Position numbers and translations under genes: made by a program. Positions 1-62,051 of a DNA stretch of 64,000 nt are shown here, in pieces. Below the pieces are notes generated by a model that searched no databases, had not been told where the DNA came from, and worked only from the letters and a program-made list of their open reading frames with translations. Source of the DNA: an uncultured Chthonomonadaceae bacterium (GTDB lineage Bacteria; Armatimonadota; Chthonomonadetes; Chthonomonadales; Chthonomonadaceae); assembly GCA_963835065.1 (NCBI GenBank), contig CAWIEK010000037.1:32001-96000 (forward strand), given 5' to 3'. Numbering within the stretch: position 1 is the stretch's first letter; each line of letters opens with the position of its first letter.

Positions 1-3000
1 ATGCCCATTCCGGGCAGCCTGTTTCCGGCTTGCAGTTGGACACGACGGATGCGGGCGGCAGGCGGGCCATGAACCGAACGGATCGGCAGGGCATCTGCCG
101 CTTTCCCTGCGAAGCGGCGCAGGCGAACACCTGGGTGTATGGCGAACGCAATGGCTCGCCCGCGTTCGTGCTGTCGGGCGCTCCCCCGCCGCCCGAACCC
201 TATGCCGTTTATGTTGTTACCGACCGTCCGGTCTATCGCCCCGGTCACAAAGCGCAGTTCAAGGGAACCGTTCGGCAGCGTTTCGAGGGGGATGCGCCCG
301 GCGGGTTTACCTACAGCGTGTTTGCCAACAAAGCCTTGAACGTCGAAATACGCGACGCGACGGACGCCCTGCTGTCGCGCCAAACCGTCACGACAAACGC
401 GAATGGTTCCTTTGACGGCAATTTTCAACTGGCAAGTGAGCCGACACTGGGCAACTGGCAGATATGTATCGCCATCGGCGCGTACCGGGCGTATGGCGCG
501 TTCAGCGTCGAAGCGTACCGCAAGCCGGAATTCACGACGGAAATAAAATTCGCGCAGCCGCACTATTTGGGCGGCACAAAAGTTCCCGTCACCATTGACA
601 CAAGGTACTATTTCGGCCAGCCGGTCAATGGCGCGTCCGTCGCGTACACCATTCAATTTCAGCCCGAATACAGCGGCGGCATGGGCAGTGAGGGAACGCC
701 CGCGATCCCGGAGCCGCCGTTCAACGGGCAGGGCATTACGGACGCGCAGGGACAACTGAAACTGGAAATCCAAACCCAACGGCTTCCGCTCAATCGCCGC
801 CTGCTGATTCACGCCACCGTCACCGACCTGAGCCGGCGTTCGCAGCAGGCGGACGGCAGCGCATTGGTGACGGGCGGCATGTTCCACTTGCGGCTGGAAA
901 CGGACAAGAGCGTGTACCGCGCCGGTGAGCGCCTGACTGTCACCGTTCATGCCGAAGATTACGACGGCAAGCCTGTTGCCACGCCCGCCCGTGTCCATCT
1001 GATCGAAACCAAGTATGACCGCAGCCACCGCCCTTACAAGGAAACAACCACGCGCCCGGTCGCCACCAATGCAGGCGGCGTCGGCGCAACGGAGTTTACG
1101 CCGCCCCGTCCCGGCTATCTGCTGCTGTCCATAGAAACGTTCGACACCGACCACAACAAAATCCAAGCGCAATTGTACGTCTGGATCGCCGGCGACGAAG
1201 CCGAAACCTACGATTACCCCACGCTCAACGTCCTGCCCGACAAAACAACCTACAAACCGGGCGAAACGGCAACACTGCTGCTCAACACGTCCCTAATCAC
1301 GCCAAAAACAGCAACGATCCAAACGGCAAACGCAACCCAACCCAACGCCCAACGCCGCCAACCTAATCGCCGCCGCCGCCAATCACCAATCCCCAATCGA
1401 AAATCGAAAATCGAGAATCGCCAGGCCTGGGCTTTGGTCACAGTGGAAGGCGAACGCCTGTATGCCGCCCGCGTGGTTCCCATTTCCAGTCGCTCCACCA
1501 TGCTTCAGGTTCCGCTTGCGGGCAATTACTTTCCCTCCGTTGAAGTAAACGTCATGCTCATTCAGGAAAAGCAAACCTATCAGCAGCAGGTGCGGCTGAC
1601 CGTGCAGCGTGACGCGCAAAAACTGAATGTACAGGTGACACCCGACAAGCCGCGCTATCAGCCGGGCGAAACCGCCACCTATACCATTATGACGCGCAAT
1701 TCTGTGGGCGCTCCGGTTCCCGCCGAGATCGGGTTCGGGGTTGTGGACGCCAGCATTTATGCCATTCAGCCGGATCGCGCGCCCAACATCGAAGGGTTTT
1801 TCTACGCGGGGCAGCAGGTACGCATCCAGACTGACTTTTCCTTTGCCGCGCAGTACAGCGGCGGCGCGTTTCAGACCGTGCCGCAGGCCGCGCCCGGTAC
1901 GCCAACCCGCGCCAGTTCAAATATCCGGGTACGGCGGCAGTTTGCGGATACCGCCTATTGGAATCCGTTTGTCGCAACGGACGCGGGCGGCAGGGCGCAA
2001 GTGTCGTTCGTGATGCCTGACAATCTGACGACATGGCGGGCGACGGCGCGGGGAATCACGTCCCAAACCCTCGTCGGCACGGCAACGCAGGACGTGACCG
2101 CAACTATGCCCCTGCTCGTTCGCCTCACCCTGCCTCGCTTTTACGTGCAGGGCGATCAGGCGACCGTATCGGCTATTGTCCACAACTACACGGGTACGGA
2201 GCGCGAAGTCCGGGCGCGTATCGAAACAACCGGAGCCGACCTGGAAGGAGCAGGCGAACGAACCTTGCGCCTTGCCTCGAACAGCGAGCAACGGCTGGAC
2301 TGGACAGCGCACATCCGCAAAACAGCGGGCAGCGCTTCCACTCCCATCCGGTTTCTCGTCACCGCGGATGGCGGCACAGGCGCTCAGGACGCGATGGAAC
2401 TGACCCTGCCCGCGCAGGAAGATGGCGTAAAGCAGGTCGAGTCGAAAGCCGACGCGCTGGACGATACCGGCGAAGTGTACGCCAAAGACCTGTCGCAATT
2501 GCCGCCCAACGCAACTGTAACCCTGACGCTTGCGCCCTCCATTGCCGCCGCCACGCTGGACGCGCTGGACTATCTGACTTCCTATCCTTACGGCTGCGCC
2601 GAGCAAACGATGAGTTCGTTCCTGCCCGATGTGATCGTGTCCCGCGCATTAAAGCGGCTGGGTTCCACGCGCGCCACGCATCCTAATCTGGCGCAGTGGG
2701 TCAATCTGGGCCTGCAAAAACTGTACCGCTATCAGCACCCGGACGGCGGCTGGAACTGGTGGGAGTTCGACCAGACGGACGGCGATATGACCGCGTATGT
2801 GCTGTGGGGATTGGTACAGGCAAGGGATGCGGGGTACATCGTGGACGAGCAGCGCATTTTGCGCGGCACGGAAGCGCTATTGCGCCTGCTGAACGGCGAA
2901 CAGGAATGGAACAAACGCGCCGACTGGCTGCTCACCCTGTCGTATGCCGCCCCAACCCGAATTATCGCGCCCCTGACCAACCTGTACGACAACCGCGAAA

Positions 3001-5439: not shown

Positions 5440-6099
5440 ATGATTGCAGAAGCTGTCGCTCTAGCCCCTGTGCCGCTTGCCGTTCCTGCGCCGACTGTTG
5501 CCTCCTTGCCGCCTGCTCCAAAGATAACGGTGCAGCAATATTTGGAAATGGAGCGCAAATCGGAAGTTCGGCACGAATATGTGAATGGAAAGATTATCGA
5601 AATGGCAGGCGAGTCCCCCACGCACAACCGTATTGCTGGAAACATATATCGTCATCTTGGCAACCGATTTGAAGATCAACCCTGTGACGTGTTTATCGAA
5701 GGCATCCGTGTACGGGTTACGCCGACGCAGTACCGCTATCCTGATGTGGTTGCATTATGCGGCGAGGCGCAATTCGACGCCACAAGGCCACCCGCCCTGC
5801 TCAACCCCGGCGTTATTTTTGAAGTGCTGTCGCCAACAACCGAGCAAGAAGACCGTGACGAAAAGTGGACGGAGTACCAACAACTGCCGAGCGTAACGGA
5901 CTATGTTCTGGTTTCGCAGAATGTCGTTCAGGTAATCCATTACGTCCGTGTTTCCGATACACATTGGACAATTACGATCTACCACGACCTGCAAAATGCG
6001 CTGACGCTGGCTTCGCTGAACACCACTTTGCCCCTTGCCGACGTTTACCGCAAGATTGTTTTCCCCACAGTGGAAGCGCCCGCTGCAACAGACGGGTAA
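5440..6099 (+). CDS. Uma2-family (DUF820) putative endonuclease
   Basis: RHEYVNG..MAG.S..HN, YPDVV, FEVLSPTT..DR.EK..Y motifs. Confidence 0.93.
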   Translation: MIAEAVALAPVPLAVPAPTVASLPPAPKITVQQYLEMERKSEVRHEYVNGKIIEMAGESPTHNRIAGNIYRHLGNRFEDQPCDVFIEGIRVRVTPTQYRYPDVVALCGEAQFDATRPPALLNPGVIFEVLSPTTEQEDRDEKWTEYQQLPSVTDYVLVSQNVVQVIHYVRVSDTHWTITIYHDLQNALTLASLNTTLPLADVYRKIVFPTVEAPAATDG

Positions 6100-6121: not shown

Positions 6122-6185
6122 TGCCTGAACACCCAATACCGAATACCCAATACCGAATACCGGAACACAGGAACACCTGAACACC
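6122..6185. repeat. Heptamer/octamer tandem array (CC[C/G]AATA, CTGAACAC-type) between convergent genes
   Basis: cccaata ccgaata cccaata ccgaata followed by ggaacac/ctgaacac variants. Confidence 0.85.
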
Positions 6186-6200
6186 GGTTTTTAGATTCGG

Positions 6201-7920
6201 CTATTTCCGTTCGTGCGCGCCGATGTCGTACTCCCTGCCGTTGGGCAGATGGTCGCCGAAAAAGTCCTCTTCGCCAACATGGATGCCGTAATAAATAGGA
6301 AGATGAACCCCGGCGTTGATGAGGGGCGATTTGGCCGTAAGCCGGTAAGCGTCGAGTTTATGGAGAATATCTGCGTTGTTGAGCGTGGGAGCCATGCCGG
6401 GATGGACGAGCAGCGGGTCTACTTCCAAGCCAACGGCCTTATCTGCGCCTTCTCTTTCACTACCTCTGTTATCGCCGCTTGTCTTGTCACCGCTTATCTT
6501 GTCACCACTGGCCTTGCTGCTGTTCCGCGCTGATTTGCCTTCCTGTCGCGTGGCGAGTTGAAAAGCGTTCAGACTGCCATACGTAACGCCGTTCCACGTC
6601 AGTTGAAACCGGTCGCCGCTGCTCCAATACGCATTGCCGCGCAGCAGAACGTCCGCCTCCCTGCTTTTCTCCAGCAATGGTACACCGCCCGTCGTCAGCA
6701 GAATGTTGTTGAAACAGCGAATGTTTCTGCCGCCGCTGACAATCAGGGCGCAGGGAGATGCGCCGGACATGGAATTGGCGGCAGGGCTGGTAAACAGCGT
6801 GTTGTTGTAAACGTTGACATCGCGTACATCGCCGCCAACGAAAATACCGCTGTAATGGTGTTTGCGCCCATCGTTCTGGCTGATATTGTAGCGGACGGTG
6901 TTGGCGCGAAACGTGTACGGCGCGTCGGGGTAGGTGTAAATCAGGTAGCCCGCGCCCTCATTGTCGTGGGAATAGTTGTATTGCAGAGTGGAGTTGGTGA
7001 CGCCGCCATCGAAATCGAAGCCGCCGCCATCAAGGGATTGGTCACTTGTCCGGTTGTGGTGGGACTCGCAATGCTGTATGGTGATGTTGTTACAGGCCGC
7101 CGCCCAAATCCCAATCGGCCCGCCAAGTTTGCACGGACACAAGGCTCCATTATCATGCGCCACGCAGCGGTCAATCAGGCCGCCATCTACAAATTCCAAA
7201 AAAATGCCGCTCCCGGAATGGTTGGCGATAAATTTCGGGTCGCCGGGATTGTCATAGGCCACGCAATGGTCAACGATCACATTCGCGTTGGCATAGCGCG
7301 TGGCATGGGTATCAAACACGCCGGTCACGTAAATGCCCGTATAAGCATTGTCATGCGCGACGCAGCGAAGGAGGCGAACGTCGCCGTACCCGCTCTGGCT
7401 TTTGTCGGACGCCGCGCCTTCTATTAAAATGCCGTGCCTGCCGAAACCCTGCGCTTCCACATTCGTCGCGCGAACGTAGGCCAGGCGCTTATTCCCTGGC
7501 AGTTCGTTGCGAAAAACCAATCCACTGCCCCGGTTGGCTTCCCGCCCCGCGCCCATGATAACAAGATTGCTGACGCTCCATCCGCCCGCGTTGCGAATCA
7601 AAACGCCCGTGCCGTTCCCGGCGTTGATGACGGCGCGGCCTTTGCCATAGGAGGTAAGCGCAATCGGCTTTAGCTTCGGTTCCCGCCCCATGCAGTTCCA
7701 TACCCCCCGGAAACGTGTCACCCCCATGCAGCAGGACGCGATCCCCGGCCTGAAACGTCTGCCTGCTGACCTGCGCCAATGTTTGCCACGCCCGCCCCGG
7801 CGCGGTTCCCGCTTCCGTATCGCTGCCGTTCGCGCTGACATAGTAATCCGCCGCCCCCGCTCCAACACTTACTCCCAAAGCCCACCACAACCCAAGTACA
7901 ATCGCCCAAATCCTGCGCAT
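6201..7920 (-). CDS. Secreted right-handed parallel beta-helix protein, frameshifted near 7675
   Basis: ORF 7489..7920 gives the signal peptide plus ADYYVS.NGSD...GDRVLL.GG.TF; ORF 6201..7868 gives the beta-helix repeats (DGGGFDFD, YNYSHDNEG) and terminal DIGAHE. Confidence 0.85.
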
Positions 7921-8166: not shown

Positions 8167-8433
8167 ATGACCTTGACGATTGACTTGCCCGATGAACTGG
8201 CCTCTCGACTAAGTGCGCTTCTGCCCGCAGAAGAGCGTGGACGCTTTGCCGTTTCCGCAATTGCCGATGCGCTTCTCGCTCAAGAGCGTGACTCCGCCGA
8301 ATGTATTGCCGCAGTCGAGGAGGCATTTATTGATGTAGATAAGGGCCGCACCATCTCCTTTGAAGAAGAAGAAGCGCGTTGGCAGCTGCAAAAGACCGCG
8401 TTGCTGACGAAGACTGGCGTTCATGTGGCATGA
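8167..8433 (+). CDS. Putative type II antitoxin
   Basis: MTLTIDLPDEL N-terminus, acidic C-terminus, ATGA overlap with the downstream toxin. Confidence 0.75.
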   Translation: MTLTIDLPDELASRLSALLPAEERGRFAVSAIADALLAQERDSAECIAAVEEAFIDVDKGRTISFEEEEARWQLQKTALLTKTGVHVA

Positions 8434-8828
8434 GCGATACAGAAGACAAAGACGAACCAACGCGGACTTATGCGTTGCGTGTTACCCAACGCGCTCAACG
8501 TGATCTGGACGCGGCAACCGTTTATTTCGCTGAAACCGCTTCACCGGAGATTGCTGTCATGTGGCGTGAAGGGATATACGCGGAGTTGGCTTCGCTTGCC
8601 ACATTTCCGCGCCGTTGTCCGCGTGTACCGGAGCAATTCCATCGTGAGGTGCGCCAACTTTTGTACCGCCGCTCTGGAAGTCAGACAGCCTATCGTATCC
8701 TGTTTGCTATTGCCGGCGAAGAGGAAACATCACCGGATGCGCCGACTGTAATTATTCTTCATGTCCGTCACACCGCCGCTCGTCCCATAACACGAACACA
8801 AGTTCGTATAATCGAGGCAGAGCAATAA
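8430..8828 (+). CDS. RelE/ParE-family toxin
   Basis: Y.LRVT.RA.RDL, L..FP.RCP, YRILF, V.ILHVRH motifs. Confidence 0.88.
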   Translation: MSDTEDKDEPTRTYALRVTQRAQRDLDAATVYFAETASPEIAVMWREGIYAELASLATFPRRCPRVPEQFHREVRQLLYRRSGSQTAYRILFAIAGEEETSPDAPTVIILHVRHTAARPITRTQVRIIEAEQ

Positions 8829-9393: not shown

Positions 9394-9663
9394 ATGACCT
9401 TTACCATTGACTTAACGGCCTCGGAGGAGGCGTACTTGGTGGCAGCAGCAAAACAGCGAGGGATTGCGCCAGACGAGTTTCTCAAGCAACTTGTAACGAA
9501 CTGCCTGCCGAAACGTGCGGACGCGACCTTTGCAGAAATTTTAGCGCCGGTTCACGAGTACAGCCGAGAACACGGGTATACCGAGGAAGAATTGGACGAG
9601 TTCGTAGAAGCCGAAGTTGCCGCGTATCGTGCCGAACGCCTCCACTGCTGCTGTTTTCAGTAG
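9394..9663 (+). CDS. Putative antitoxin whose native 3' end is displaced to 12174-12215
   Basis: MTFTIDLT..EEAYL..AAKQRG; SD GAGGT; the native C-terminus AERRAKQKSNAHE* appears after the inserted segment. Confidence 0.7.
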   Translation: MTFTIDLTASEEAYLVAAAKQRGIAPDEFLKQLVTNCLPKRADATFAEILAPVHEYSREHGYTEEELDEFVEAEVAAYRAERLHCCCFQ

Positions 9664-9971
9664 CCGCCTTCCAGCCACGAGACGTACAAGTCGTAATAGT
9701 GGGCGAAGTCTTCGGGCAATCCTTCCTCATCTAAATCTTCTACGCCAATCCAGCGCTCTTTGCCTTTTGCCTGCACCTTGCATTGCAGCGTGTCACTGGC
9801 GCCGACTTGAAAGCCGAGGACTTGCACGGGGCTGCCAAGCAGGTTGGCGCGAAACGGCGTTTCCACTTGCTCCAAAAACGTGTTTTCCCACGCGCTCATC
9901 TGCTCGTACTCGCCGTAAGCGTCCGTCAGTATCTCGTCAATCTCGTCGCGCTTTTCGGATGGTTCCGCCAT
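9657..9971 (-). CDS. CcbP-like (calcium-binding family) small acidic protein, copy 1
   Basis: EILTDAYGEYEQMSAW...PFRA motif; SD AGGAGG; protein identical to copy 2. Confidence 0.65.
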   Translation of the reverse strand: MAEPSEKRDEIDEILTDAYGEYEQMSAWENTFLEQVETPFRANLLGSPVQVLGFQVGASDTLQCKVQAKGKERWIGVEDLDEEGLPEDFAHYYDLYVSWLEGGY

Positions 9972-10036
9972 TTTGCCTCCTGTCCTGTGTTGTTGCCTTG
10001 CGTAGGTGTTTCGTTTATCGGTGTGTACCGGTGGAA

Positions 10037-11281
10037 TTAGCCGCAGCACTGCTTGTACTTTTTGCCGCTGCCGCAGGGGCAGGGTTCATTACGGCCCGGC
10101 TTCTTTCCGCTAAACGGGGCGGGCGGGGCCGGCGTTTTCAGGGCTTCCACCAGGCGCTCGCTCAGGGGGATTGTGCCGGGAAGCGCCCTGTTGTCGTAAT
10201 CCGGGCGGTAACTGCGCAGCAGAATTTCGCCGTCCCGCTGCCACTCGAAATCAGGGAGCGAAAACAGGCTGCGGATCACCTGGGTGGCGCGTTCCGGGTC
10301 GCGCTCGGCCAGCATGCGTACCGGGATCAAAGACATATCGGGGTCTTGAATATACTCGCTCACGATAGCCCGGTAGGGTTTCGACTTGACCTTTTTGGGA
10401 TCGGCAAATGCTTCCGCAACCAGTCCCAGATCGGGATGAAACTCCATGCCTTCCCGCTCATCAAAGGTCACGCCGACGCTTTTCACGTCGTCCTCCCAAT
10501 CTATTTGCGAGTATTGCAGGTGCTTGGGCAGGGTTTGTATCGGGGGCGACTCTGTTTCGCCCGTCGCAAGGGCGGCTGCGGCGTTTGTTTTCTGAACGCG
10601 ATGCAGCATGTAGGCGTTCATGCGCGTGACGAACTCCCCTACCGGCCACACAACCAAATCCGAGCCGAAGAAGGCGACGAAATCCGGCTTTTCCGCGCGC
10701 TGTAGTTCGATAGCCTCTTCCCTCTTCGCCGGGTTGCGAAACATCAGGGCGGGCGACTTCTGAATGGCTTCCGCCGCCCCGCGCAGCACCTCGTTTTTGC
10801 CGGAAGGCGGATACAGACTGATCGCCCCACTCAGCATCCAGCCGTCGCCCATCGGCACAATCCGCGCCTTGATAAAGTGGCCGGGCAGCATCTTATCGAA
10901 ATACGCGCGTCCCATGTTGGAGCGGACGCGGTACACAAGGTCATCCAACAGGTTGTCGAACACCAATACATCGCCCTCGTGCCGCAAAATCTCAAACAAC
11001 CCTTCCACGACGTTCTTCCAGCCCAGCATGATTTCCTGGTCCGCTTCGGGCAGGTCGGGGTGGTCGCTTACAAAATGGTCTACCACCGTCAGGCCGTCTT
11101 CCAGCCGATATTGAAGCAGAAAATAGTCCATAAAACTGACATACTGCGGGTTACTCACCGGTTCCGGGGTGTCAAAATAGTGGATTTGCGCTTCCACCAG
11201 ATCGCCGGCAAACCGCTTGTCCTCGCCGAATCGCACCAGTTGCCGCTTCAACGCGCCCGCGTGTTCCATCAAATCCATCAT
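10037..11281 (-). CDS. SEC-C metal-binding domain protein, copy 1
   Basis: C-terminal [26 protein letters not shown] upstream of MMDL. Confidence 0.9.
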
Positions 11282-11506
11282 GCTCGCGCTTCCTCCAAAA
11301 CCCGCGCCTCTTAATAAATGAGACTTGCTGCCCGCCCTCAATCATCACTTCAAACATACGTTTTCTGCTGTCATTTTATCGCCATAGTCCGAAAACAGAA
11401 ATAAGCCGAAGAACAGAATCAGGCAGGAACTAAAGTGTGCCGCGATGAATAGGATGTAGACAAGATTGCACAGAACCACCCATATCAGGGTCAGGGAGTG
11501 TCCAGA

Positions 11507-11875
11507 ATGAAGCGATGCATACAAGTAGCGGTTGGTCCTGGAATATTCTCATGTGAGCGATCAGCCTCATTCACAGTAAACGACAAATACTACACCCTGC
11601 TTGCAGACGCTTCTTTCTTCGACGGCGATCTCATGCAGGTGCGGGTTATCGCCATACAAGGCGACCAATGCTTGATTGACCTGCCCAATGAGACGTTCAC
11701 AACCGGCAACCGCATGTACGTGCCAACAGTCATGCTTCTGGATATGTCAACAGCCCTACAAACTGAGGAGCCATCCGCAAAAGAGATCGCAAAGTTGGCA
11801 ATGGCTGGCGGCGCGTTTGACTGGCTTGCCGATGAACCTGATCTGTATGATGATACTTGCGGCGAAAGCGCTTAA
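11507..11875 (+). CDS. Hypothetical protein with antitoxin-like acidic tail, copy 1
   Basis: ORF conserved in both copies; tail GGAFDWLADEPDLY. Confidence 0.65.
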   Translation: MKRCIQVAVGPGIFSCERSASFTVNDKYYTLLADASFFDGDLMQVRVIAIQGDQCLIDLPNETFTTGNRMYVPTVMLLDMSTALQTEEPSAKEIAKLAMAGGAFDWLADEPDLYDDTCGESA

Positions 11876-11900
11876 AATAGAAAGAAAAAGAGGCGCAGCC

Positions 11901-11929
11901 TTGTATTTATTCGTCAATAGACGTATAAT
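11901..11929 (+). promoter_or_regulatory. Sigma70-type promoter of the putative antisense RNA, copy 1
   Basis: TTGTAT-17 nt-TATAAT; conserved in copy 2 at 15042-15070. Confidence 0.7.
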
Positions 11930-11934
11930 AGGAG

Positions 11935-11998
11935 GTATCCAGCCAACGTTGGTAGCGCTGACTGGACACGCGCCTAGCCTACGCTAGTGGCGGTTTTT
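11935..11998 (+). ncRNA. Putative ~65-nt antisense antitoxin RNA, copy 1
   Basis: Promoter, then hairpin TCCAG...CTGGA, then hairpin CGCCTAGC/GCTAGTGGCG plus T5; overlaps the 3' end of the small minus-strand ORF. Confidence 0.5.
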
Positions 11999-50931: not shown

Positions 50932-51944
50932 TATGAATTTTGTGCTTGTGACATTAGAGTTTCTACCACATCAACCGTTTTGAGGGCAGATTGGCCGGGG
51001 CTGCATAGGGGCGCGTCGTGAAAAAGCGCATTGGCGAGGTTGTCGTACATGCGGTAAAAGGCGTGGCCTACGGTGGACGGCAGGGGATGGGGGGTGTCGG
51101 AGGCGATTTCATGCTCACCGGTTGTGGCGCGATGTGGGCAGTGGGGGAACAGGCGGATGTTTAAGCCTTCCTGTTCCATGCTCAAGCGTCCGCGCGTACC
51201 CCATATATCCAGGCTGTTTTCGCGGTAGCGCGTGAAATCTACGGCTTGCGCCATCACGCACAGGCCGTTTTGCATTTGCAGGGTGAACGGGAATTGCCGG
51301 TCGCCGGACAATGGCCCGGCGTGGGAGGGAACCGCGCCAGGCGCGATACGGGCGCAGGCCACTTCACCGAACAGCATCCGGGCAAAATCTATGAGATGTG
51401 TGCCGTTGTTGCGCAGGCCGTTGCCGTACAGAGCGAAAACCGCCTGTGGAGCGCCGATAAGTTCCTGCAAATAGCCGCCTGCCAAACGCTGAAACAATTC
51501 GTCCGCCCGCCGCCATAGATTCACCTGTACCAAAATACTGCGACGAGCGCACTCCCGCAAAAACGCCTCGCTTTGTTCACGGGTTTCCCCCAGCGGCTTT
51601 TCCACGAGAACGGCGCGTAGGTCGGGCAGGTTTGCCAGTAATTCCAAGCGCGTGTGGGGCGGCGTTGCCAGCACCGCCACTTCGGGCGAAACCATTTGCG
51701 CCAGTTCTGCTGCGGTACGCGCTGTATGCGGAATATGCCAGCGTTGCTTTGCCGCTTGCAGGGCGTCCTCGGACACATCCACCACGCCCTGCCAGTCGAA
51801 GCCGGGATGCGCCTGCAAAACCTGCGCGTGTGTGGCAAAAGGATAATGCCGCGCCATGACAGGATCGTCCGCGTACCTGGCTCCCACCTGCCCGAAGCCT
51901 ACAATGGCTGTTCGCAGCGGCTTACGCGAAATCGCAGTTGTCAT
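50931..51944 (-). CDS. Gfo/Idh/MocA oxidoreductase
   Basis: IVGFGQVG, VEKP, VN..RR, NNGTHLID. Confidence 0.88.
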   Translation of the reverse strand: MTTAISRKPLRTAIVGFGQVGARYADDPVMARHYPFATHAQVLQAHPGFDWQGVVDVSEDALQAAKQRWHIPHTARTAAELAQMVSPEVAVLATPPHTRLELLANLPDLRAVLVEKPLGETREQSEAFLRECARRSILVQVNLWRRADELFQRLAGGYLQELIGAPQAVFALYGNGLRNNGTHLIDFARMLFGEVACARIAPGAVPSHAGPLSGDRQFPFTLQMQNGLCVMAQAVDFTRYRENSLDIWGTRGRLSMEQEGLNIRLFPHCPHRATTGEHEIASDTPHPLPSTVGHAFYRMYDNLANALFHDAPLCSPGQSALKTVDVVETLMSQAQNS

Positions 51945-52804
51945 TACGCGGCCTTTGCCCTTGCTTCGGTCTTTGTCGTTACTTCAATCATTGTCTTTAC
52001 TTCGGTGTTTGCGTATACTTGAGTCCCGGCTTTAGTTGCCTGCTTTGCTGTGGGAAGATTTTCACTGCGGGCGGATTTTTCCTCGCAATCACGGTTGAGG
52101 GCAAGCAGTTCGGGCTTGCGGCGCAGCAGGCGCATGATCTCTTCCAGCCCGAACCAATCGCCATACGCGGGCGCAAGATGCCGGTACACGGCGTTTATAA
52201 ATTGATGGTCTTCCGGGTAATCCAACTGAAAGCGATAGTCGGGGGCATGCCAGCGGGCAGGCGCGAACAGGTTGAAGATGCGATACCGGCGCGGGTTATC
52301 GTAAAAATACAGCGAAACGTGTTCGCGCACCGCAGGGTTAGAAATCGTTCGCTCCACATCCGACAGGTCGCGCAGGCGGAAAACCTGAATGTCTTCGCCC
52401 ATTGGAAACGTGACCGGAAACACATTGGTCACAACATCACAGTCGTTGTTGAGGAACGTTTTCACGCCCATGTCAATCAGTTCCGGGTCGAGCAGGATGC
52501 AGTCGCCCGTAATTTCCACCACAATGTCCGATTCCATGCTGCGCTGCGCTCCAACCACGCGCTTGAGAACATCCTCTTCGCTGCCGCGATAAACGGCAAC
52601 CTTTTCGCGTTCTGCCCAGGCCGCAAGCGCATTATCTCCCGGCGATGTGGAAGTGGCAAGGACAATATCATCCAGATGGCGGCAATGGCGCAGGCGGCGC
52701 AGCAATCTTGTCAGGGCCGGCTGCCCGCCCACATCGGCAAGCGCTTTGCCGGGAAAACGCGACGACCCCATGCGGGCCTCAATGCTGGCAATCACTCGTG
52801 GCAT
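51944..52804 (-). CDS. Second SpsF-like cytidylyltransferase
   Basis: IEARMGSSRFPGK, RGSEEDVL.R, EITGDC, REHVS, LDYPED. Confidence 0.9.
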   Translation of the reverse strand: MPRVIASIEARMGSSRFPGKALADVGGQPALTRLLRRLRHCRHLDDIVLATSTSPGDNALAAWAEREKVAVYRGSEEDVLKRVVGAQRSMESDIVVEITGDCILLDPELIDMGVKTFLNNDCDVVTNVFPVTFPMGEDIQVFRLRDLSDVERTISNPAVREHVSLYFYDNPRRYRIFNLFAPARWHAPDYRFQLDYPEDHQFINAVYRHLAPAYGDWFGLEEIMRLLRRKPELLALNRDCEEKSARSENLPTAKQATKAGTQVYANTEVKTMIEVTTKTEARAKAA

Positions 52805-52838
52805 AACGGAACTCCGAAGTTTCCAATGAACTTTGCAA

Positions 52839-54212
52839 TCAGGCATGAAAATAACATAAAAAGTGGTAAATGGCGCGTTCAAACACATCCGGCTGACGGC
52901 AGAAGCGCAGATGCGAACCGATTTCCAGATTGTTCCAATGCGCCTTCCGATCCAAAATCATTTCCAACAGGGCAAAAGGCAGCGTGATGCGAACAAACGG
53001 CTCTTCTTCCAATCCCCGAAACGTTTTAGCGACCGGGCAGCCATTAAAGGGAACACAGTACAAATGTTCCTCCCCTGTATCCAGAACCAGTTTCCAATCG
53101 GAGCGATAACCGCCCTGCGCGTCCTGATAGCGGAGCATCCGCGCCTGCGCCACCTGTAAACGCGGCATCAAATCCGGCAACTCGGAGAGGGGCGCGAACA
53201 TTTCGGCTTCTTCTTGCGCTTGATGTTGATCTTCATAAGGGTAGCGCCTGTGCGCCAGAACGTCGCGTACATATTCCGCGCGCTTCACGGGATCGGGAGG
53301 GGCAAACGGCGCGGAAGAGGTTTGGGTTTCGACATCAAACCGTTCACCCGAATTCAGCAGAACCATTCGGGCGTTCAGATCGTGTTCGGCCAGCAGAGGA
53401 GCGAACACGACAGGCAGTTCCTCCAATTCGGGAACGCCGCGAAAGGGGTTGAGCGCGGACAATCGCCCGCCGAGCGTATACTGCCCGGCAAACGGCAAAA
53501 AGGCGGTTGGGCGCAACTGTTTCAGGTACATCGCCGCCTGATGCAAAAACTGCTTTTGCTTGGCTTGCCCGCGCTCCCGTTTCGCCGCATCGTCCAGGTT
53601 GTCGAAACACTGCGGGTACGGTCCTGCCCCGGCGTAGCCCACCATCAGAAAGTCTACGCTGCCATAGCGTTCGAGGATGTGCTGACACGCCGTGCTTGCC
53701 ATGACATGCGGGCAGTCGTTGACATTCACGACGGTCTTGCCGCCGCCATGAAAGACGGCAAGCGTATCAATCTGCGAAGAACGATTGGGAGATTGGTTAG
53801 GTGCGCAGCCAAAGAACTTGCCGCAAACGCCCGGATCGCAGTTGTCCGCCGCCATGATTTCCATCGTGAAGTCAGGGGCAATTTCCACAATGCTCCTGTG
53901 CGGCGCTTCGCGTATATCGGTAAAGCCTATCCCCGCAAGCGTCCGCCGCACAAATTTTTCGGCGTAATCGTGGATGACAATAGGAATATGGCGAGGCAGG
54001 CGTGACAGCGTAGCCGGGTCGAGGTGATCCGGGTGAATGTGGGAGATGTAAATATAGTCTACATCGGCGAAATCTTCCGGCGCGAACGTCAAAGGCGGAT
54101 AGTGGAACCAGCTTCCATAGTAGATGCCGTCCGTCAGCCAGGGATCGCACAGGACGCGCTTGCCGGCATGTTCCACAATCACGGTTGCGCTGCTGATGTA
54201 CTGAATTTGCAT
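52839..54212 (-). CDS. Metallo-beta-lactamase-fold protein, CMP-Neu5Ac hydroxylase (CMAH)-like, no Rieske domain
   Basis: DPWL, YIYISHIHPDH, N.ND, YAGAGPYP, PFAG.Y, W..LEIG...R.PDVF. Confidence 0.75.
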   Translation of the reverse strand: MQIQYISSATVIVEHAGKRVLCDPWLTDGIYYGSWFHYPPLTFAPEDFADVDYIYISHIHPDHLDPATLSRLPRHIPIVIHDYAEKFVRRTLAGIGFTDIREAPHRSIVEIAPDFTMEIMAADNCDPGVCGKFFGCAPNQSPNRSSQIDTLAVFHGGGKTVVNVNDCPHVMASTACQHILERYGSVDFLMVGYAGAGPYPQCFDNLDDAAKRERGQAKQKQFLHQAAMYLKQLRPTAFLPFAGQYTLGGRLSALNPFRGVPELEELPVVFAPLLAEHDLNARMVLLNSGERFDVETQTSSAPFAPPDPVKRAEYVRDVLAHRRYPYEDQHQAQEEAEMFAPLSELPDLMPRLQVAQARMLRYQDAQGGYRSDWKLVLDTGEEHLYCVPFNGCPVAKTFRGLEEEPFVRITLPFALLEMILDRKAHWNNLEIGSHLRFCRQPDVFERAIYHFLCYFHA

Positions 54213-54293
54213 TTACCTCACTCCGGGCGTCCATTTATGGACACCCTCTCCTGGCCGCTCGTTCCTCGCTAGGAGAGGGGCTAATAATATGCG

Positions 54294-55544
54294 TTACTTT
54301 CTTACAAGGCGATGCACTTTTCGGACGGCTTCAATAAGTAAGTGAACGTGTGCATTGGTAGGCGCATACATGCAGTTTTCAAAGCCGAGGAAAGAGTGGG
54401 CGTACAACTCTTCGACAACCGGGCATAATCCTTGTTCATAGCGTCTGTCGGACAAGTTAAATGGATAGGAGCCGAAAGCGACACGCTTCTGAAAAACCGG
54501 CAGCATATAGAGCGGGCGTACATAACCGGTGAAATGGGGGAAACCTTCTGCTGTCAGTGCGCGGCTGAACTGCTCACGCGATACGCCTACGGCTTCGGCA
54601 TCATAGCGGAAGCCAAGCACATAGTAAACATGGCGGCAGCCGGGGCGCGTGAGCGGAACCGTCAGCCCTTCCAGTCCTTGCAGTCCCGCAATGAGTTGCT
54701 GCGCCAGCCGTTCGCGGGTTTCCACATGCCGGTCAATTTTGTTTAATTGTTCCAGGCCGATAGCCGCGCTCAACTCGGTCATGCGGTAGTTGAAGCCGAT
54801 TATGTTGGAAATGTCTTCCATGCCAAGCGGCTCAACAACATTTTCGCCATGATTGCGAATTAGTTGAAGTTTACGCGCCAAACCTGCATCGTTGGTGACG
54901 CAAACGCCGCCTTCGCCCGCGTGAATATGCTTGTGGTAATTCAGGCTGAACACGCCGATGTGCCCGATTGTGCCTGCAAGCCTGCCGTTTTCCATCGCAA
55001 GCGGAGCCTGCGCATTGTCTTCAATCAAGTACAGTCCGTTGCGGTCAGCCATATCGCGCAGGTGTGCCAGTTGCGCCGGATGCCCGAATAGATTGACGGC
55101 AATGATGGCGCGAGTACGGGGCGTGATTGCGGCTTGAACGGCGTTTACATCCAGGCAAAAGGTTTCCGGTTCCACGTCCGCGAAAACCGGGATGCCGCCA
55201 TAAATCAGGGGCGCGAGCGCGGTTGCCGACATGGTGTAGGGCGGCACAATCACTTCATCGCCGGGCTGTATTCCGATTGCGCCCATGGCCGCGTACAGGC
55301 CGGACGTGGCCGAGTTGACCGAAACCGCGTGTGCGACCCCGAACCGCTGCGCCCAAGCGTCTTCAAAGCGGCGCACCATCGGCCCGCCGCCGAACTGTTC
55401 GCCCCAACTGCCATAAAAGCCGGACAAGCACCCGGAGCGCACAACCTCTGTAACCGCCTGTACTTCCTCTTCGCCCAACGTATTGTAAGCGGGCAGGGGA
55501 CACGGAAGTACAGGGGAACCGCCGAATAAGGCTAACTTTTCCAA
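54294..55544 (-). CDS. DegT/DnrJ/EryC1/StrS sugar aminotransferase
   Basis: VNSATSGL, IEDNAQA, SLNYHKHIHAGEGG, GFNYRMTE; TTG start after SD GGAGG. Confidence 0.92.
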   Translation of the reverse strand: MEKLALFGGSPVLPCPLPAYNTLGEEEVQAVTEVVRSGCLSGFYGSWGEQFGGGPMVRRFEDAWAQRFGVAHAVSVNSATSGLYAAMGAIGIQPGDEVIVPPYTMSATALAPLIYGGIPVFADVEPETFCLDVNAVQAAITPRTRAIIAVNLFGHPAQLAHLRDMADRNGLYLIEDNAQAPLAMENGRLAGTIGHIGVFSLNYHKHIHAGEGGVCVTNDAGLARKLQLIRNHGENVVEPLGMEDISNIIGFNYRMTELSAAIGLEQLNKIDRHVETRERLAQQLIAGLQGLEGLTVPLTRPGCRHVYYVLGFRYDAEAVGVSREQFSRALTAEGFPHFTGYVRPLYMLPVFQKRVAFGSYPFNLSDRRYEQGLCPVVEELYAHSFLGFENCMYAPTNAHVHLLIEAVRKVHRLVRK

Positions 55545-55748
55545 GCAAACCTCCACAGGTGAGGAACCGCGAAAGGATACGGTAGAAACCGCGAAACACG
55601 CAAAATAAACGAAAAAAGACCAAAGCAACGGATAGACAAACCCGTTAAACACGGCACAATCTGGTGTCCACAGGACAATTGGCCGCAGGCCTAACAACCG
55701 GCATTTTATGTACTGGTTGAACACGGCTGCACTATACGTGGTCAATGT

Positions 55749-56528
55749 TCAGGCGCGGACGTTGATGCCTGCCGTGTGCAGGAAGGAACGGGCTTTGATC
55801 GGGCTTTGATCGGTGAAATGGAACAGGCTGCCGACGGCAATAGCGGAAGCGTGGGCGTCCGTTACGGCATCGGCAAGGTGCTGCAAGGTTCCCGCGCCGC
55901 CGGACGCGATGATGGGAATGGGATAGCGAACGGTCGCTTCACGGATCAGTTCAAGATCGTAGCCCTGCATCGTGCCGTCGCGGTCAATGGACGTGAGCAG
56001 AATCTCGCCCGCGCCTTCAGCGACAATGCGGTCCAGATGCGTCCAGACATCCATTCCTGTCGGCTGTGTGCCGCCCCGTATCCAAACCTCATGCAGATGA
56101 GTCGGAGTGGCCTTCACATCAACGGACGCGACAACGCACTGCTTACCGTAACAGTCGGCAATGGCGGGCAAAAAGGAACGGGACTCAAACGCAAGCGTGT
56201 TGACCGCGATTTTGTCCGCTCCGGCGCGAAGCAGGCAGGCTACATCATCAAGATCGCGTATGCCGCCGCCAACCGTCAGCGGCATAAAACACTCTTCCGC
56301 CGCGCGAGCGATAATGTCCAGCAACAGGCCGCGTCCCGGCTCCCCATCCGCAGAAGGAGCGGCGTAACAGTCAATGTCCAGAAACAGCAGTTCATCCACC
56401 GTCTGCGCGTTGTAAATACGCGCATTGGAAACCGGAGCGCCCACGTCACGCAGGTTCTCGAAGCGCGTTCCCTTTACGGTGCGCCCCCGTTTCAGCAGCA
56501 GTTTTGGAATGATGCGTGTTTTTAGCAT
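55749..56528 (-). CDS. HisF paralog of the glycan amidotransferase system (WbuZ-like)
   Basis: RIIP.LL, FMPLTVGGGI, SIDRDGT..GYDL; next to the HisH paralog and amidotransferase. Confidence 0.9.
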   Translation of the reverse strand: MLKTRIIPKLLLKRGRTVKGTRFENLRDVGAPVSNARIYNAQTVDELLFLDIDCYAAPSADGEPGRGLLLDIIARAAEECFMPLTVGGGIRDLDDVACLLRAGADKIAVNTLAFESRSFLPAIADCYGKQCVVASVDVKATPTHLHEVWIRGGTQPTGMDVWTHLDRIVAEGAGEILLTSIDRDGTMQGYDLELIREATVRYPIPIIASGGAGTLQHLADAVTDAHASAIAVGSLFHFTDQSPIKARSFLHTAGINVRA

Positions 56529-56533
56529 AGGAT

Positions 56534-56671
56534 TTAGGGGTCAGGATTCAGGATTCAGGATTCAGGAGCCAGTTACAGAGTGTTCTTGATAAAAAGGCAG
56601 ATTTCTTACCACTCAAGAGCAGTAACAAGCTTGTCTTCACTGACCCCTGAATCCTGAATCCTGACCCCTAA
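56534..56671. repeat. Inverted pair of CAGGATT heptamer arrays between the hisH-like and hisF-like genes
   Basis: TTAGGGGTCAGGATTCAGGATTCAGG (56534-56559) is the exact reverse complement of 56646-56671. Confidence 0.92.
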
Positions 56672-57291
56672 CCGGGTTTCCACTGCATGAAGTTATCCAG
56701 CAGGCACAACCCGTTTTCCTGACTTTTTTCAGGATGGAACTGGACGGCGAACAGGTTATTTTTGCGTATGGCTGCCGGGAACGCGCCGCCGTAATCGCAG
56801 GTGGCAATCACATCGCCTGCATCGGCGCAGGACAGGGCGTAGGAATGAACAAAGTAAACGCAAGTATCTTTGCGCTTGATGCCGGCAAACAGCGGCTCGT
56901 TTGGGTCAAAACAGAGTTCATTCCAGCCGACGTGCGGCAGTTTCAAATTGGAATCATGCGGCGTGAGCAGGCGGCAGGAAGCGTTCAGCAGTCCTAATCC
57001 CGGCCATTCGCCGTTTTCCATTCCGGTATGCGCCAGCACTTGCATGCCCACGCAAATGCCCATAATCGGCTTACCACTGTATGCCTGCGCGAGAAGGGCG
57101 GCATCCAAACCGGTTTGTTTGAGATTGCGCATGGCGGTTGCGAACGCGCCCTGCCCCGGAAGAATGATGCGCTCCGCGCCCTGCAAATCTTCGGGACGCG
57201 ACGTAAGCTGCGCGTCGTACCCCAAATGCTCCAGCGCGCGAAGCACGGAACACAGATTGCTCACTCCATAATCTACAACGGCTGCCTGCAT
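56668..57291 (-). CDS. HisH paralog glutamine amidotransferase (WbuY-like)
   Basis: GICVGMQ, PHVGWN, YFVHSY, QFHPEKS. Confidence 0.92.
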   Translation of the reverse strand: MQAAVVDYGVSNLCSVLRALEHLGYDAQLTSRPEDLQGAERIILPGQGAFATAMRNLKQTGLDAALLAQAYSGKPIMGICVGMQVLAHTGMENGEWPGLGLLNASCRLLTPHDSNLKLPHVGWNELCFDPNEPLFAGIKRKDTCVYFVHSYALSCADAGDVIATCDYGGAFPAAIRKNNLFAVQFHPEKSQENGLCLLDNFMQWKPG

Positions 57292-57332
57292 AAGTATAAG
57301 TCCATCTTTGATGCGAATTCTTTTACAAAGAC

Positions 57333-58484
57333 TTACGATGCCTTCTGCAACACGCGCAATTGCGGCTTGTATTCCCAGGGCGAAACCTGATGGCTTTTGG
57401 CGATTTTAAGGAATTCGGCTTCGCTCATGCCAACGATTTCCAGGAACCAATCCAGACTGGCGGGACGCTGGCCGTCGTATTCCACCATCAGGCGTTCGCC
57501 GGTTTCCCGTTCCAGAACGCCGTTGCGTATGTCAATGCTGGCGAGATGCGCCGTGCGTCCGTAGCCGCGCTTGATGAACTTGATATAATCGCGGACGCCC
57601 TGCAAGCCACATTCGATCTTTTCGTAGCCGTACTGTGAGGGAACGCCTTCTACCACATCTTCCTGCCAGCCGAGTTCCCGCTTGATAAGGTCCACCTGAT
57701 TCTTGACGTTCCAGGGAATGTAGGAACCCAGGCAGACGGAGCGATAATTGATGGCCCGCAGGTCGCGCAATTTCGGGTAGCGGAACGGATCAAGATCGCG
57801 CGGGTCGAGATCGCTCATATCAATCATGCCTGCCATGTCGTCGGCGGTAATGCCCAGGTTCACGAACCGATTGAACCGCTTCTCGTCCACTTCCTCTACT
57901 TCGTCGTAGGAAAAATAGGCCGTGTATTCCGCGCTAGGTTCGCCCCAGAACACAAGCGGAACCTCAAATTTGGCGGCAATCTGCATCGGATACGCGAAGA
58001 TGCCGGAGTGGCAATGCCAGCAAAAGTCGCCCTTGCGCAGAAAACTTTCCAGCATCAGGCGCTGCACCAGTTTCCAATTGGGACGGAATTTAAGGAAATC
58101 GCAGCCCAATGTTTGCAGAACGCGCTCGTTGTTCGCCAGTACGCCCGGACGCAGAAAGCCATGATCGAAACTGACCACGAGCGGCTTGATTTTGTACTCC
58201 TGCATCAGATATAAGAGCGTAAACGCGCTGTCCTTGCCCCCGCTGAACGGAACAATGCAGTCGTAAGCGTATTTGCCCCGGTGCTGTTCAATCAAGGCGT
58301 CCAGATTTCGCTTTTTCTGTTCCCAATCTATGGCATGTTTGATCTCGTGCTGGCGGCAGACATTGCACACGCCTTCGGCATCGAAAATAATCGTTTCGTG
58401 CGTTTCCGGTATCAGGCAGCGGGAGCAACGCTTTAGTTGATAGTTGATAGTTGATAGTTGATAGGGGAAAGCAGTGGGTTGCAT
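57333..58484 (-). CDS. N-acetyl sugar amidotransferase (WbuX/PseA family)
   Basis: C..C, GVC..C, YDCIVPFSGGKDS PP-loop, KFIKRGYGR. Confidence 0.9.
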   Translation of the reverse strand: MQPTAFPYQLSTINYQLKRCSRCLIPETHETIIFDAEGVCNVCRQHEIKHAIDWEQKKRNLDALIEQHRGKYAYDCIVPFSGGKDSAFTLLYLMQEYKIKPLVVSFDHGFLRPGVLANNERVLQTLGCDFLKFRPNWKLVQRLMLESFLRKGDFCWHCHSGIFAYPMQIAAKFEVPLVFWGEPSAEYTAYFSYDEVEEVDEKRFNRFVNLGITADDMAGMIDMSDLDPRDLDPFRYPKLRDLRAINYRSVCLGSYIPWNVKNQVDLIKRELGWQEDVVEGVPSQYGYEKIECGLQGVRDYIKFIKRGYGRTAHLASIDIRNGVLERETGERLMVEYDGQRPASLDWFLEIVGMSEAEFLKIAKSHQVSPWEYKPQLRVLQKAS

Positions 58485-58559
58485 TATGAAGGCTCCTCGT
58501 AGGGTGTATAGAAATTAAACAGTAGGGATCATTTGATAGTCAGGGTGGCCTATCAACCA

Positions 58560-59183
58560 TCAACTATCAAATATCCGAAACTCTTCCCGAAACAGCCCCA
58601 TGTCAATGCGATCCTGAAAAGCGCCGTGACTCCAGTATTCCTGACGCTTGCGGCCTTCGATGACGAAACCGAGGCGTTCATACAGACGGAGGGCGCGTTC
58701 GTTGTTGGCGAGGACGCCCAAAGACACTTTGCGCAGCCCTAATCGCTCGAAGGCATACGTCAGGCAGAGCCGCATGGCTTCCTCGCCAAGCCCCTGCCCG
58801 TGATGGCGCGTATCGCCGATAAGGATGCCGACGGAAGCGGTTCGGTGCAGCCAATGAATGGGTTCCAATTTGATGTTGCCGATATGCGCCCCGCTTTGCA
58901 GATGCTGAATAGCAAAGAACAGGCAAGTCGGGAACCCGGAAGCGGCTGCCGTTGCTTGCGAAACATAGCGTTGCAGGGCTTCGAGAGTTTGTGGAAACGC
59001 CCCGGTTTCCAGATGGCGCGTAATATCGGGATCGTTCAGCCAGCCGAGGTAATGCGCTCCGGCGTCGGCGGTTGTCAGAGGCCGCAGGCCGATTCGCTTG
59101 CCGCGCAAAAACAGGGCGCAAGCGTCCGCAGGCGAATACAAGGGAACTTGAGCGTCATCCAAAATGGTAAGGTCGGGCGACAT
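58560..59183 (-). CDS. RimJ/RimL-type GNAT acetyltransferase
   Basis: YLGWLNDP, HIGNIKL, GQGLG.EA, N.RA..LYE.LGF..EG. Confidence 0.88.
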   Translation of the reverse strand: MSPDLTILDDAQVPLYSPADACALFLRGKRIGLRPLTTADAGAHYLGWLNDPDITRHLETGAFPQTLEALQRYVSQATAAASGFPTCLFFAIQHLQSGAHIGNIKLEPIHWLHRTASVGILIGDTRHHGQGLGEEAMRLCLTYAFERLGLRKVSLGVLANNERALRLYERLGFVIEGRKRQEYWSHGAFQDRIDMGLFREEFRIFDS

Positions 59184-59325: not shown

Positions 59326-59432
59326 TCTATCAACTATGAACTGTTTATGAACTGTAAACTTGAAGCCCGGTAACGTGATTGTCGAGTGTCACCAGACATT
59401 CCTATCAACTACGAACTATCAACTATCAACTA
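59326..59432. repeat. CTATCAA/CTATGAA heptamer arrays downstream of rpoN
   Basis: ctatcaa ctatgaa...; ctatcaa ctacgaa ctatcaa ctatcaa. Confidence 0.85.
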
Positions 59433-59433
59433 T

Positions 59434-60876: not shown

Positions 60877-62051
60877 TGTGTCACCTGTTTGGACAGTCTA
60901 TTATTGACAATCAGTTTTCAACAGTCAGTTTCAAGAGTTGAAATCAATGGTCAGGCCAACTGTCAACGAAATTATGGCGGTGGAACTCATCAAAGCGTTC
61001 AGGTCACATTTTAGCGCGGCATAAACGCGGCAAAGGCCGCAATGCTGAAACCATCTTAATGAAAATCGGGATTTCCGAAGTTACCGGCTGATTGTCGGCG
61101 TCTTCCTGGCTCATGTTCAGAGTGTGGGCGGGTGGAGCAGGCAGTTACAGGAAAAATGCCGGGAGAGTCGGCTATGGTACCGTTATTATGGCATGTTTTT
61201 AGGAGTGCGCGTAATCACATCAATGTTAAATTTGAGTTGTCGCTGTTTGTGGGCACATCAGCCGTGTCATAAATCCCGGCGCGGCGCTTTCCCGAAAATC
61301 TACTTCCCAATGACTCCTTTATCACCGTATCAGCGACATGGCAAGCAGAAATTAGGAGAGAGACAATATCCCACTTCTTGACGAGGCAGCGTAGCGCTTT
61401 GTTCAGGCAAACCATACCTGTTTTAAGCGACTCTGCTAAAAATACCAGTATACTTGGTTTTAGCGTTTATCCAGCGATACTTAATGACACTACATGGCGC
61501 TTGAAAATGGTGTAAAGGAAACGAAATTTAGAGCATATCTATTTACATATAAAATGAATTAGGCAAAAGGAACAGAACTGTGATGGGCAAAAGGCGGTTG
61601 GGATCGATGGTAGAACCCTGTAAACACTTCTGCAAACGCGCGGGAAGTCAGGTATAATTGAGTATAGTATACCCTGAAAAGAGATCAAATAGGTAGAAAT
61701 TTGTACGTATCCTCGTTGGATTTTGCTGTCACTTTTGCTTTGTTTTTGTAGACGCCGAGCGTGGCGGGCGCAGAAACATCCGAGCAATATGCCCCGGCAT
61801 AGCGTCGAACGCCAAATCAGCGAAACTCCGACAGGCAATAGGCGTCTAAACTCCCAACAGCAACATCTTGTACGCATCGGTATTCAGGTGTTCGGTGTTC
61901 AGGTATTCGGATAAGTCGGACATTTGCGTTTACGGCTGCCGAAGTGAACATTGGCCCGACGGTTCTTTAGTCAGATAATCTTTAGCCAGATAATTTTGAG
62001 AGCTATTCCTCATACTTTTTCGGCATTAGCCCCCTTTAGGAGAAAGACAAC

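Follow-up and report, generated by a model that had tools for sequence, protein, structure and literature searches.

Polar hairpins built of heptamer arrays in a Chthonomonadaceae genome, and their shared sites and differing words in a sister species

That tandem heptamers are in excess in bacteria is an observation of long standing that lacks a mechanism, and in cyanobacteria such arrays are called short tandemly repeated repetitive (STRR) sequences. Passages of the published descriptions report four-copy heptanucleotide sites and paired 7/8/9-mer sites in Geobacter metallireducens (Aklujkar et al. 2009, PMC2700814), GGGAATC repeats in Xanthomonas and GGGGA(C/T)T repeats in Nostoc (Rehm et al. 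2015, PMC4692102), a repeat-built hairpin in the P6b stem-loop of the Nostoc trnL group I intron (Kaasalainen et al. 2015, PMC4476775), and intergenic TAACTGA repeats in Beggiatoaceae (PMC4679880). In this work, we analyzed the heptamer arrays found in 64,000 nucleotides of DNA from an uncultured Chthonomonadaceae bacterium (contig CAWIEK010000037.1 of assembly GCA_963835065.1, positions 32,001 to 96,000; the window), in the genome to which the window belongs (G000; 8.0 Mb, 57% GC, 71 contigs, 92% complete), and in two other genomes of the same genus, G002 and the more distant G001. The arrays are the arms of small polar hairpins, which occupy many of the same sites in G002 with different words.

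Period 7 dominates the short tandem repeats of G000. Among exact arrays of at least three copies, 1,330 have period 7, compared with 2, 6, 239, and 46 for periods 5, 6, 8, and 9, respectively, and a tolerant scan, counted separately, yielded 2,027 period-7 arrays. The window itself contains 12 exact period-7 runs, with 0, 1, and 1 for periods 5, 6, and 8, and no such run appeared in any of 30 third-order Markov simulations of the window. The heptamer arrays are real and far beyond chance. A preliminary description of the window had predicted an excess of period 7 over periods 5, 6, and 8 and an enrichment at gene boundaries, and both are found in the genome-wide count. All of the arrays that it reported are present at, or a few bases from, the positions it gave, although several words belong to the opposite strand or a rotated phase (on the plus strand, 49663 reads TTTCGAT, 46919 GTTGGTG, and 58434 TAGTTGA), and the arrays reported at 36475 and 59326 are short or degenerate. 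Genes were called with our own codon model. By these calls, 1,159 of the 2,027 arrays (57%) are intergenic, whereas only 25% of random points are, and a gene end is found within 50 bp for 48% of the arrays and for 14% of random points. This preference for gene boundaries is only partial, as 612 of the 2,027 arrays are wholly coding, including those at 1379-1423, 36452-36489, 46332-46451, and 50669-50737. Many words are used (42 words have at least five arrays each), but they are not free, with 102 of 1,170 possible classes in use and 15 classes accounting for 75% of the arrays. Seven is also not the sole unit length, since periods 8 and 9 are part of the same system. A special clustering in the glycan gene cluster was borne out only weakly: its 11 arrays in 18.4 kb, compared with a mean of 4.6, are a weak excess that 6% of 765 genome windows reach, and the density over the whole window (20 arrays per 100 kb) is below the genome mean of 25.

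The unit of this system is not the free period-7 array but a polar hairpin with arms of fixed length. A typical element of approximately 120 bp consists of four copies of a G-rich word, a spacer of approximately 55 bp, and the mirror arm. An inverted partner was found within 200 bp for 368 arrays, with a spacer peak at 50-65 bp, and for the 259 of these pairs with exact inverse words and gaps of 30-100 bp, on which the element geometry is based, the medians are 119 bp for the element, 31 bp for the stem, and 55 bp for the loop, with an arm identity of 98%. The left arm has more G than C in 356 of the 368 pairs, is tied in 12, and has more C than G in none, while all arrays taken together split 935:938. 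A C-rich arm precedes a G-rich arm in 10 of 736 mixed clusters. When the perfect runs of ten common words were counted, 390 had three copies, 480 had four, and 16 had five or more, and this near-absence of longer runs points to arms of fixed length. Variant bases of one arm are mirrored in the partner in 72 of 126 cases, compared with 19 +/- 3 for control elements of the same word. The spacers are mostly unique, with the exception of a motif common to 46 of 63 AGTAGTC spacers, nearly always at the same inner position, and of seven pairs among the 259 elements that share a spacer but have unrelated flanks (one pair at 0.96). The arms are flanked by conserved non-periodic sequence. No target duplication of at least 3 bp was found above the control level (at 3 bp, 6 versus 7.4), and duplications of 2 bp (57 versus 36 in the control) owe their excess mostly to self-complementary pairs within the arms. 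Intergenic stems start a median of 2 bp from the upstream stop codon and end a median of 18 bp before the next start codon, and the orientations of the junctions that hold elements (376/344/123/87) are close to the background (1533/1398/500/433).

Two complete hairpins are found in the window, and both lie at junctions that are empty in the sister genomes, a comparison that the preliminary description had proposed. One, (AGTAGTC)4 - 54 bp - (CTACTGA)4 at 20712-20831 between sbcD and sbcC, has a folding energy of -72.0 kcal/mol (shuffled sequences, -25.6 +/- 4.0); the junction measures 130 bp in G000, and in the sisters, which have no array there, it is down to 12 bp (G002) and 43 bp (G001). 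The other, with AGGATTC/GAATCCT arms at 56529-56667 (-65.4 kcal/mol; shuffled sequences, -30.7 +/- 4.3), fills the junction between hisF and hisH, which is 139 bp in G000; in G002 and G001 this junction is 13 and 23 bp long, respectively, and the element is absent from both sisters. The sister species lack an element at many further junctions. Where arrays are shared, the position is kept far more often than the word. In the comparison with G002, which covered 0.78 Mb, 300 orthologous junctions were scored, of which 35 have arrays in both genomes, 40 in G000 only, 11 in G002 only, and 214 in neither (odds ratio 17, p = 1e-15), and this association stands after length filters. The word is the same at 2 of the 35 shared junctions (0.46 by permutation), and the likeness of their spacers is weak (score 18.3 versus 14.4, n = 15). 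Within 386 orthologous genes, all 19 in-gene clusters of G002 fall on one of 22 G000 sites, where 0.26 would be expected, and only two of these 19 have the same detected word; alignment confirmed 17 of the 19 sites, showed the same word at one, and failed to locate one. Five of the six in-gene clusters of G001, for which 0.46 Mb was compared, also coincide with G000 sites (0.13 expected). The word repertoire is specific to the species: for instance, AGGCATT triplets occur at 149 sites in G000 and at none in the compared DNA of G002 or G001. The finding of the same sites with other words in relatives suggests that the runs were likely copied and overwritten rather than grown locally. Within the genus, the three genomes have 271, 102, and 28 period-7 arrays per Mb. 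Of the 28 relatives outside it, 18 were sampled (18-80 kb), and their 1.18 Mb contained a single array. The burst of arrays is confined to the genus among the relatives sampled.

Arms are also found well inside proteins. More than 100 bp from either gene end, 288 clusters lie in 247 of 5,048 high-scoring genes, or approximately 5% of genes. None of the 288 is C-rich-first in the coding direction, and nearly all are on the stop-free strand, and their open frames suggest that the arms are translated; the repeat-derived peptide GTGNREQ is present in 91 predicted proteins. Outside genes, 410 of 508 arm pairs are matched, whereas inside genes 14 of 92 are matched and 78 are hybrid. One case in the window is an in-frame composite of three arms (SGQWSVVSGQ, GTGNREQGT, and QSAIGNRQSAIGNR) at 46332-46451 on the minus strand, which adds approximately 40 residues to a class-III aminotransferase and is missing from all seven aligned distant homologues (one further row was blank). 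In G002 the same codon holds an insert of other words. The insert is predicted to be disordered, with a pLDDT below 50 for residues 157-211 compared with a model mean of 81.3, and the composite gave no hairpin on folding.

Some hairpins enclose a gene, as the preliminary description had guessed for two protein families. G000 has three PF05635 four-helix-bundle genes and three PF13366 GxxExxY genes, none of them in the window, and all three PF05635 genes lie between inverted heptamer or octamer arms with protein genes at their flanks. Over 31 genomes, among the best 17 of 37 PF05635 matches, the 14 loci of at least 94 bits are all between inverted 7- or 8-mer arms, 13 of them with the G-rich arm first, and the three weaker loci are not. 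Two four-helix loci scored below the best cross-locus control because kin share the word. Among the best 23 of 30 PF13366 matches, 20 are between inverted arms, with period 9 in 14, period 10 in 3, period 8 in 3, and period 7 in none. As movers of the arrays these genes fared less well, since their presence does not predict dispersed arrays: over the 21 genomes of the density comparison, neither the number of four-helix genes nor that of GxxExxY genes was correlated with array density (p 0.10-0.25). At G000:C24:144566-145032, AGGCATT arms enclose 411 bp without a convincing open reading frame (ORF), which may be a cargo gene that has decayed or else a passenger that is non-coding.

These observations can be drawn together in a reading to which we give about even chances, namely that the arms of these small hairpins are copied from site to site as finished modules of approximately 30 bp, mostly over or beside an existing arm. 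That arms or elements are copied in trans is well supported, and to that extent the trans-acting origin proposed in the preliminary description stands: the same words occur at hundreds of unlinked sites, and whole-element copies, empty sites, and species-specific repertoires were all found. New words might enter a lineage on cargo cassettes, in which case the short gene-less forms would be cassettes minus the gene. An existing hairpin may be prone to break or to stall replication, and repair could then copy an arm, or an arm-spacer-arm unit, from another element at the DNA level, by ectopic gene conversion or template switching. Inside genes, selection would retain only stop-free in-frame arms, leaving unmatched arms in disordered loops. 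A bolder version, which we regard as improbable though worth stating, is that a dedicated system overwrites fixed addresses, including the loops and N-termini of about 1 in 20 proteins, with 30-bp modules from the four-helix (7/8) and GxxExxY (9) cassettes. If true, the heptamer excess of bacteria would have behind it a machine, not recognised before, that rewrites sequence and diversifies proteins.

Several results weigh against the copying of arms between hairpins. No enzyme that starts the copy event was found, and one word differs too much from another for homologous recombination of the ordinary kind, so that a change of word needs composite donors or a structure-directed step. The junctions of G000 and G001 show no association (odds ratio 1.0 over 98 junctions). 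At one junction, that of a retron reverse transcriptase (RT) gene, other and unrelated hairpins are present in 4 of 28 outgroup loci; some junctions thus attract any palindrome, and a part of the reuse between genes could be due to insertions that occurred repeatedly and independently. Among nested composites, 70 of 94 have no matched pair, and outer arms are not more decayed than inner ones (p = 0.12). With regard to the cassettes as a source of words, seven relatives with a four-helix cassette have one array in 500 kb, and G001 has arrays and no four-helix gene. A possible strain-level change, four extra in-frame GGTATTC words (27 bp) behind position 50892, was seen in a single close-strain contig (run X1, 3,127 bp, approximately 92% alike, depth 6.3) and could be a gain or a loss. 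Finally, G000 and G002 contain indel errors, with 16 of 182 tested genes of G000 frameshifted.

Of the alternatives, transposition in the manner of repetitive extragenic palindromic hairpins (REPINs) or MITEs (miniature inverted-repeat transposable elements) is one that we consider doubtful. A dedicated transposase or nuclease, for which the GxxExxY PD-(D/E)XK protein and some partner of the four-helix protein are possible candidates, would move arm-spacer-arm units into a few tolerant junctions or into old elements, in agreement with the whole-element copies with unrelated flanks, the clean empty sites, the fixed inner motif of the AGTAGTC spacers, and the genes enclosed by arms; the passages of PMC3337134 describe unique spacers for REPINs as well. 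However, since in-gene pairs are mostly hybrid and many partner arms contain stop codons, whole units are not what inserted in genes, and the number of cargo genes does not follow array density. A transposase partner of the RAYT/Y1 type was rejected, as none of the four Y1 transposase matches in the genome, at 92% completeness, has a 7/8/9-mer array within 600 bp.

A second alternative, which is very unlikely, is that transcribed hairpins are reverse-transcribed and written back, with an Avd-like four-helix chaperone and a type XIII retron RT as the writer. The four-helix protein does match Avd weakly (33.1 bits, cut-off 80), and all three genomes of the genus have a type XIII operon in which the RT gene is directly preceded upstream by a hairpin whose word differs between them. 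In contrast, type XIII RT matches occur in 58 of 401 genomes of the phylum, the RT and four-helix genes are on different contigs, and 28 loci outside the genus (120 kb) contain no exact period-7 array, most of them having abutting genes and no hairpin, from which it follows that the hairpin is not the retron RNA. The type XIII retron was therefore rejected as template or driver, the hairpin upstream of its RT gene being another reused junction, and so was the identity of the hairpin with the retron non-coding RNA, as none of the 28 outside loci has a heptamer hairpin and the palindromes in four of them are unrelated. A diversity-generating retroelement was rejected as well, since the two RTs of the genome are of retron type XIII and Cas1-linked and the Avd score is below the cut-off. 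The type XIII operon of G000 (WGR/HEAT, SWIM-BRCT, and RT genes) is located at C50:52482-58854 (L269); because the type XIII RT gene usually abuts the SWIM gene, the non-coding RNA of the retron must lie elsewhere. The Cas2, RT, and Cas1 genes lie together at G000:C49:681191-683452 (L273).

It is equally improbable that the elements are selected regulatory parts, such as RNase III sites, mRNA stabilisers, or protein-binding sites, whose place is kept by function while the word drifts. Strong stems of approximately 31 bp close to stop and start codons and the presence of an RNase III gene would suit such a role, and regulator binding was proposed by Aklujkar et al. in the passages of PMC2700814. 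However, many junctions have no element in the sister species, the orientation of the junctions is near background, and the best-kept addresses are in genes, where the arms are unmatched and non-folding; moreover, function would leave the spread of one word unexplained. Local polymerase slippage with a preference for seven bases, each array arising independently, is a published hypothesis for the heptamer excess (cited in PMC4692102) and may still trim or add single words, but it is scarcely credible as the origin of the arrays because it gives no account of the mirror pairs, the one-way polarity, the four-copy ceiling, the predominance of 15 words, or the burst restricted to one genus; MutL, moreover, is intact. 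As genus-specific causes, loss of mismatch repair (MutL is present in 30 of 31 genomes), presence of Ku (found in 1 of 31, outside the genus), and loss of RNase III (present in 29 of 31) were rejected, and so was loss of the SbcCD hairpin nuclease. The sbcC gene (20838-23397, plus strand) is split by a frameshift near 21,450, which is likely an assembly error, given the proportion of frameshifted genes in G000 and the open 858-codon frame of G001.

The remaining elements of the window are of several kinds, and the region from 40 to 64 kb is syntenic in G001 and G002. A TAGTTGA/CTATCAA pair at 58434-58575, of which one arm holds the stop codon of a GNAT gene and the other is in frame near the start of wbuX, has the same word in G002, and G001 has a TTGTTGT array at the wbuX position; a 9-mer hairpin of G001 between hisH and wbuX has no counterpart in G000. 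After the rpoN stop codon, two CTATCAA arms, the first degenerate, lie at 59326-59433 (plus strand), where G002 has a AGGAGAAA 8-mer hairpin and G001 none. A GGTGTTC/GGTATTC 7/8-mer arm at 61877-61910 (plus strand) was not seen in G001 or G002, and a GGTGTTC(A) 7/8-mer arm at 43645-43686 (plus strand) is at the end of a GNAT gene. The start of the aminotransferase gene is enclosed, together with a separate GTAG-type palindrome, by a GTTGGTG arm and its mirror CACCAAC arm (46919-47308). Other palindromic repeats (47047-47167, 43472-43520, and 54244-54283) comprise a GTAG-type element with GTAGGGACACAACATGTTGTGTCC ends and a 20-bp internal tandem, and CCTCACCCCAACCCTCTCC...GAGGGG hairpins, and both types are present in G002 too. 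A single TTTCGAT arm (49663-49698, plus strand), in frame near the start of a minus-strand GNAT gene, is common to G002 and absent from G001. Two in-frame arms (PNTQHPT and SSFILHP; 50669-50737, minus strand) are inside the gene at 49729-50931; the AAGGATG word is also in G002, where the second arm is another one, and the corresponding position in G001 holds an AGGAGAA-type arm. In frame directly after the ATG at 50931 is a GGGTGTT arm (50889-50928, minus strand).

Elsewhere in the window, an in-frame composite arm (NHQSPIENRKSRI) lies in an alpha-2-macroglobulin gene (1379-1423, plus strand). A pectate-lyase-like gene has a short arm (PNTQHP; 36452-36489, minus strand) in frame toward its N-terminal end, and 8-mer plus 7-mer arms lie just past the stop codon of the beta-helix gene 6201-7691 (6127-6187, minus strand). 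A nested hairpin with 9-mer-type arms (AACCGCGAAACACGCGAA ... TTCGCGTGTTTCGCGGTT; 17700-17862) had been missed earlier, and this arm type also flanks a GxxExxY gene in another genome (G006). The window further encodes a Uma2-family nuclease (5530-6099), with an arm after the gene and no partner arm upstream, a ParE-like protein (8379-8828), and a PIN-domain protein (18902-19414). A group I intron (Rfam RF00028, 18134-18355) that has no heptamer array splits a tRNA gene at 18062-18414 (plus strand); joining the exons by eye gives a CAU anticodon, and ARAGORN with introns gives Leu(CAA). On the minus strand, 9657-14424 consists of two near-identical tandem units, each with a SEC-C-motif gene (approximately 414 codons) and a small ORF, and at 37212-37317 there is a 21-bp tandem repeat (4.5 copies, 97%) that is not built of heptamer words. 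The glycan cluster (40776-59183, minus strand) is of the pseudaminic/legionaminic type (PseI, PseG, WbuX, WbuZ, and HisH-like), adjoins rpoN, and is syntenic in G001 and G002.

When compared with known systems, the arrays share with STRR-like heptamers the excess of period 7 over neighbouring periods, a mostly intergenic location, several word families, and frequent convergent pairs; the nearest Atlas clusters of the host RpoN are not cyanobacterial, and an N-terminal motif of pilin type hints at Armatimonadota. The sites of Geobacter are alike in having four tandem copies, inter- and intragenic locations, opposite-strand pairs, a class 2 word, TCTCCGTS[Y], that matches 9-mer arms of G000, and one junction with a different element in a sister species, but they number only tens of copies and were interpreted as regulator binding sites, and the passages of PMC2700814 neither link them to a cargo nor give a rule of polarity or a comparison of sites over whole genomes. 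The repeats of Xanthomonas and Nostoc, according to passages of PMC4692102, are likewise G-rich heptamers in convergent pairs, with 83% in the same gene context between two species; one word family is kept there, whereas G000 has dozens of words and the word changes at a kept site. In the Nostoc P6b stem-loop one repeat class is repeatedly swapped for another in place, but the passages of PMC4476775 concern one locus and two classes, compared with dozens of sites and many words here, also in proteins. The Coxiella burnetii 23S rRNA intervening sequence (IVS), as described in part of PMC4990558, contains an S23p/PF05635 gene surrounded by heptamers and by a terminal stem of 28 bp; the three cassettes of G000 are between protein genes, and most elements are gene-less. 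A search for an rRNA location of the element gave one crude 23S motif match, with no array within 2.5 kb. REPINs also consist of two inverted repeats around a unique spacer in hundreds of mostly intergenic copies (Bertels and Rainey 2011, in the passages of PMC3337134), and the elements of G000 likewise have two inverted repeats, the spacer between them being variable but with a length that is preferred. However, REPIN repeats are palindromic, whereas the arms of G000 are tandem non-palindromic words, commonly in hybrids and also in genes, and no RAYT is flanked by arms in G000. The terminal inverted repeats (median stem and arm identity as above) resemble those of MITEs, but the target-site duplication and the conserved interior of MITEs are lacking (seven related pairs among 259 elements, and a short inner motif in one family). 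The palindromic elements of Rickettsia are conserved units of approximately 150 bp that likewise give rise to repeat-derived in-frame peptide inserts in many unrelated proteins, but the inserts of G000 are mosaics of periodic 30-bp arms with turnover.

The heptamer hairpins thus resemble a REPIN or IVS derivative and belong to none of the REPINs, MITEs, diversity-generating retroelements, or retron RNAs. In a literature search that was thin on subscription journals, no paper was found that deals with genome-wide word replacement, including inside proteins, with the different periods of the two kinds of cargo gene, or with a polarity grammar in proteins. The overwriting of fixed sites, also inside proteins, makes the old heptamer question directly testable: an array-rich genus in a nearly array-free sampled order allows the missing factor to be sought by gene content, and the repeat-derived peptides in approximately 5% of proteins matter for annotation and for the evolution of loops. 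The hairpin architecture is already published for Geobacter, Xanthomonas, and the Coxiella IVS, and word replacement for one Nostoc locus; beside these, this genus sets measurable rules for any mechanism, namely that arms have four copies and a single polarity, that targets are not duplicated, and that addresses stay while their words are replaced.

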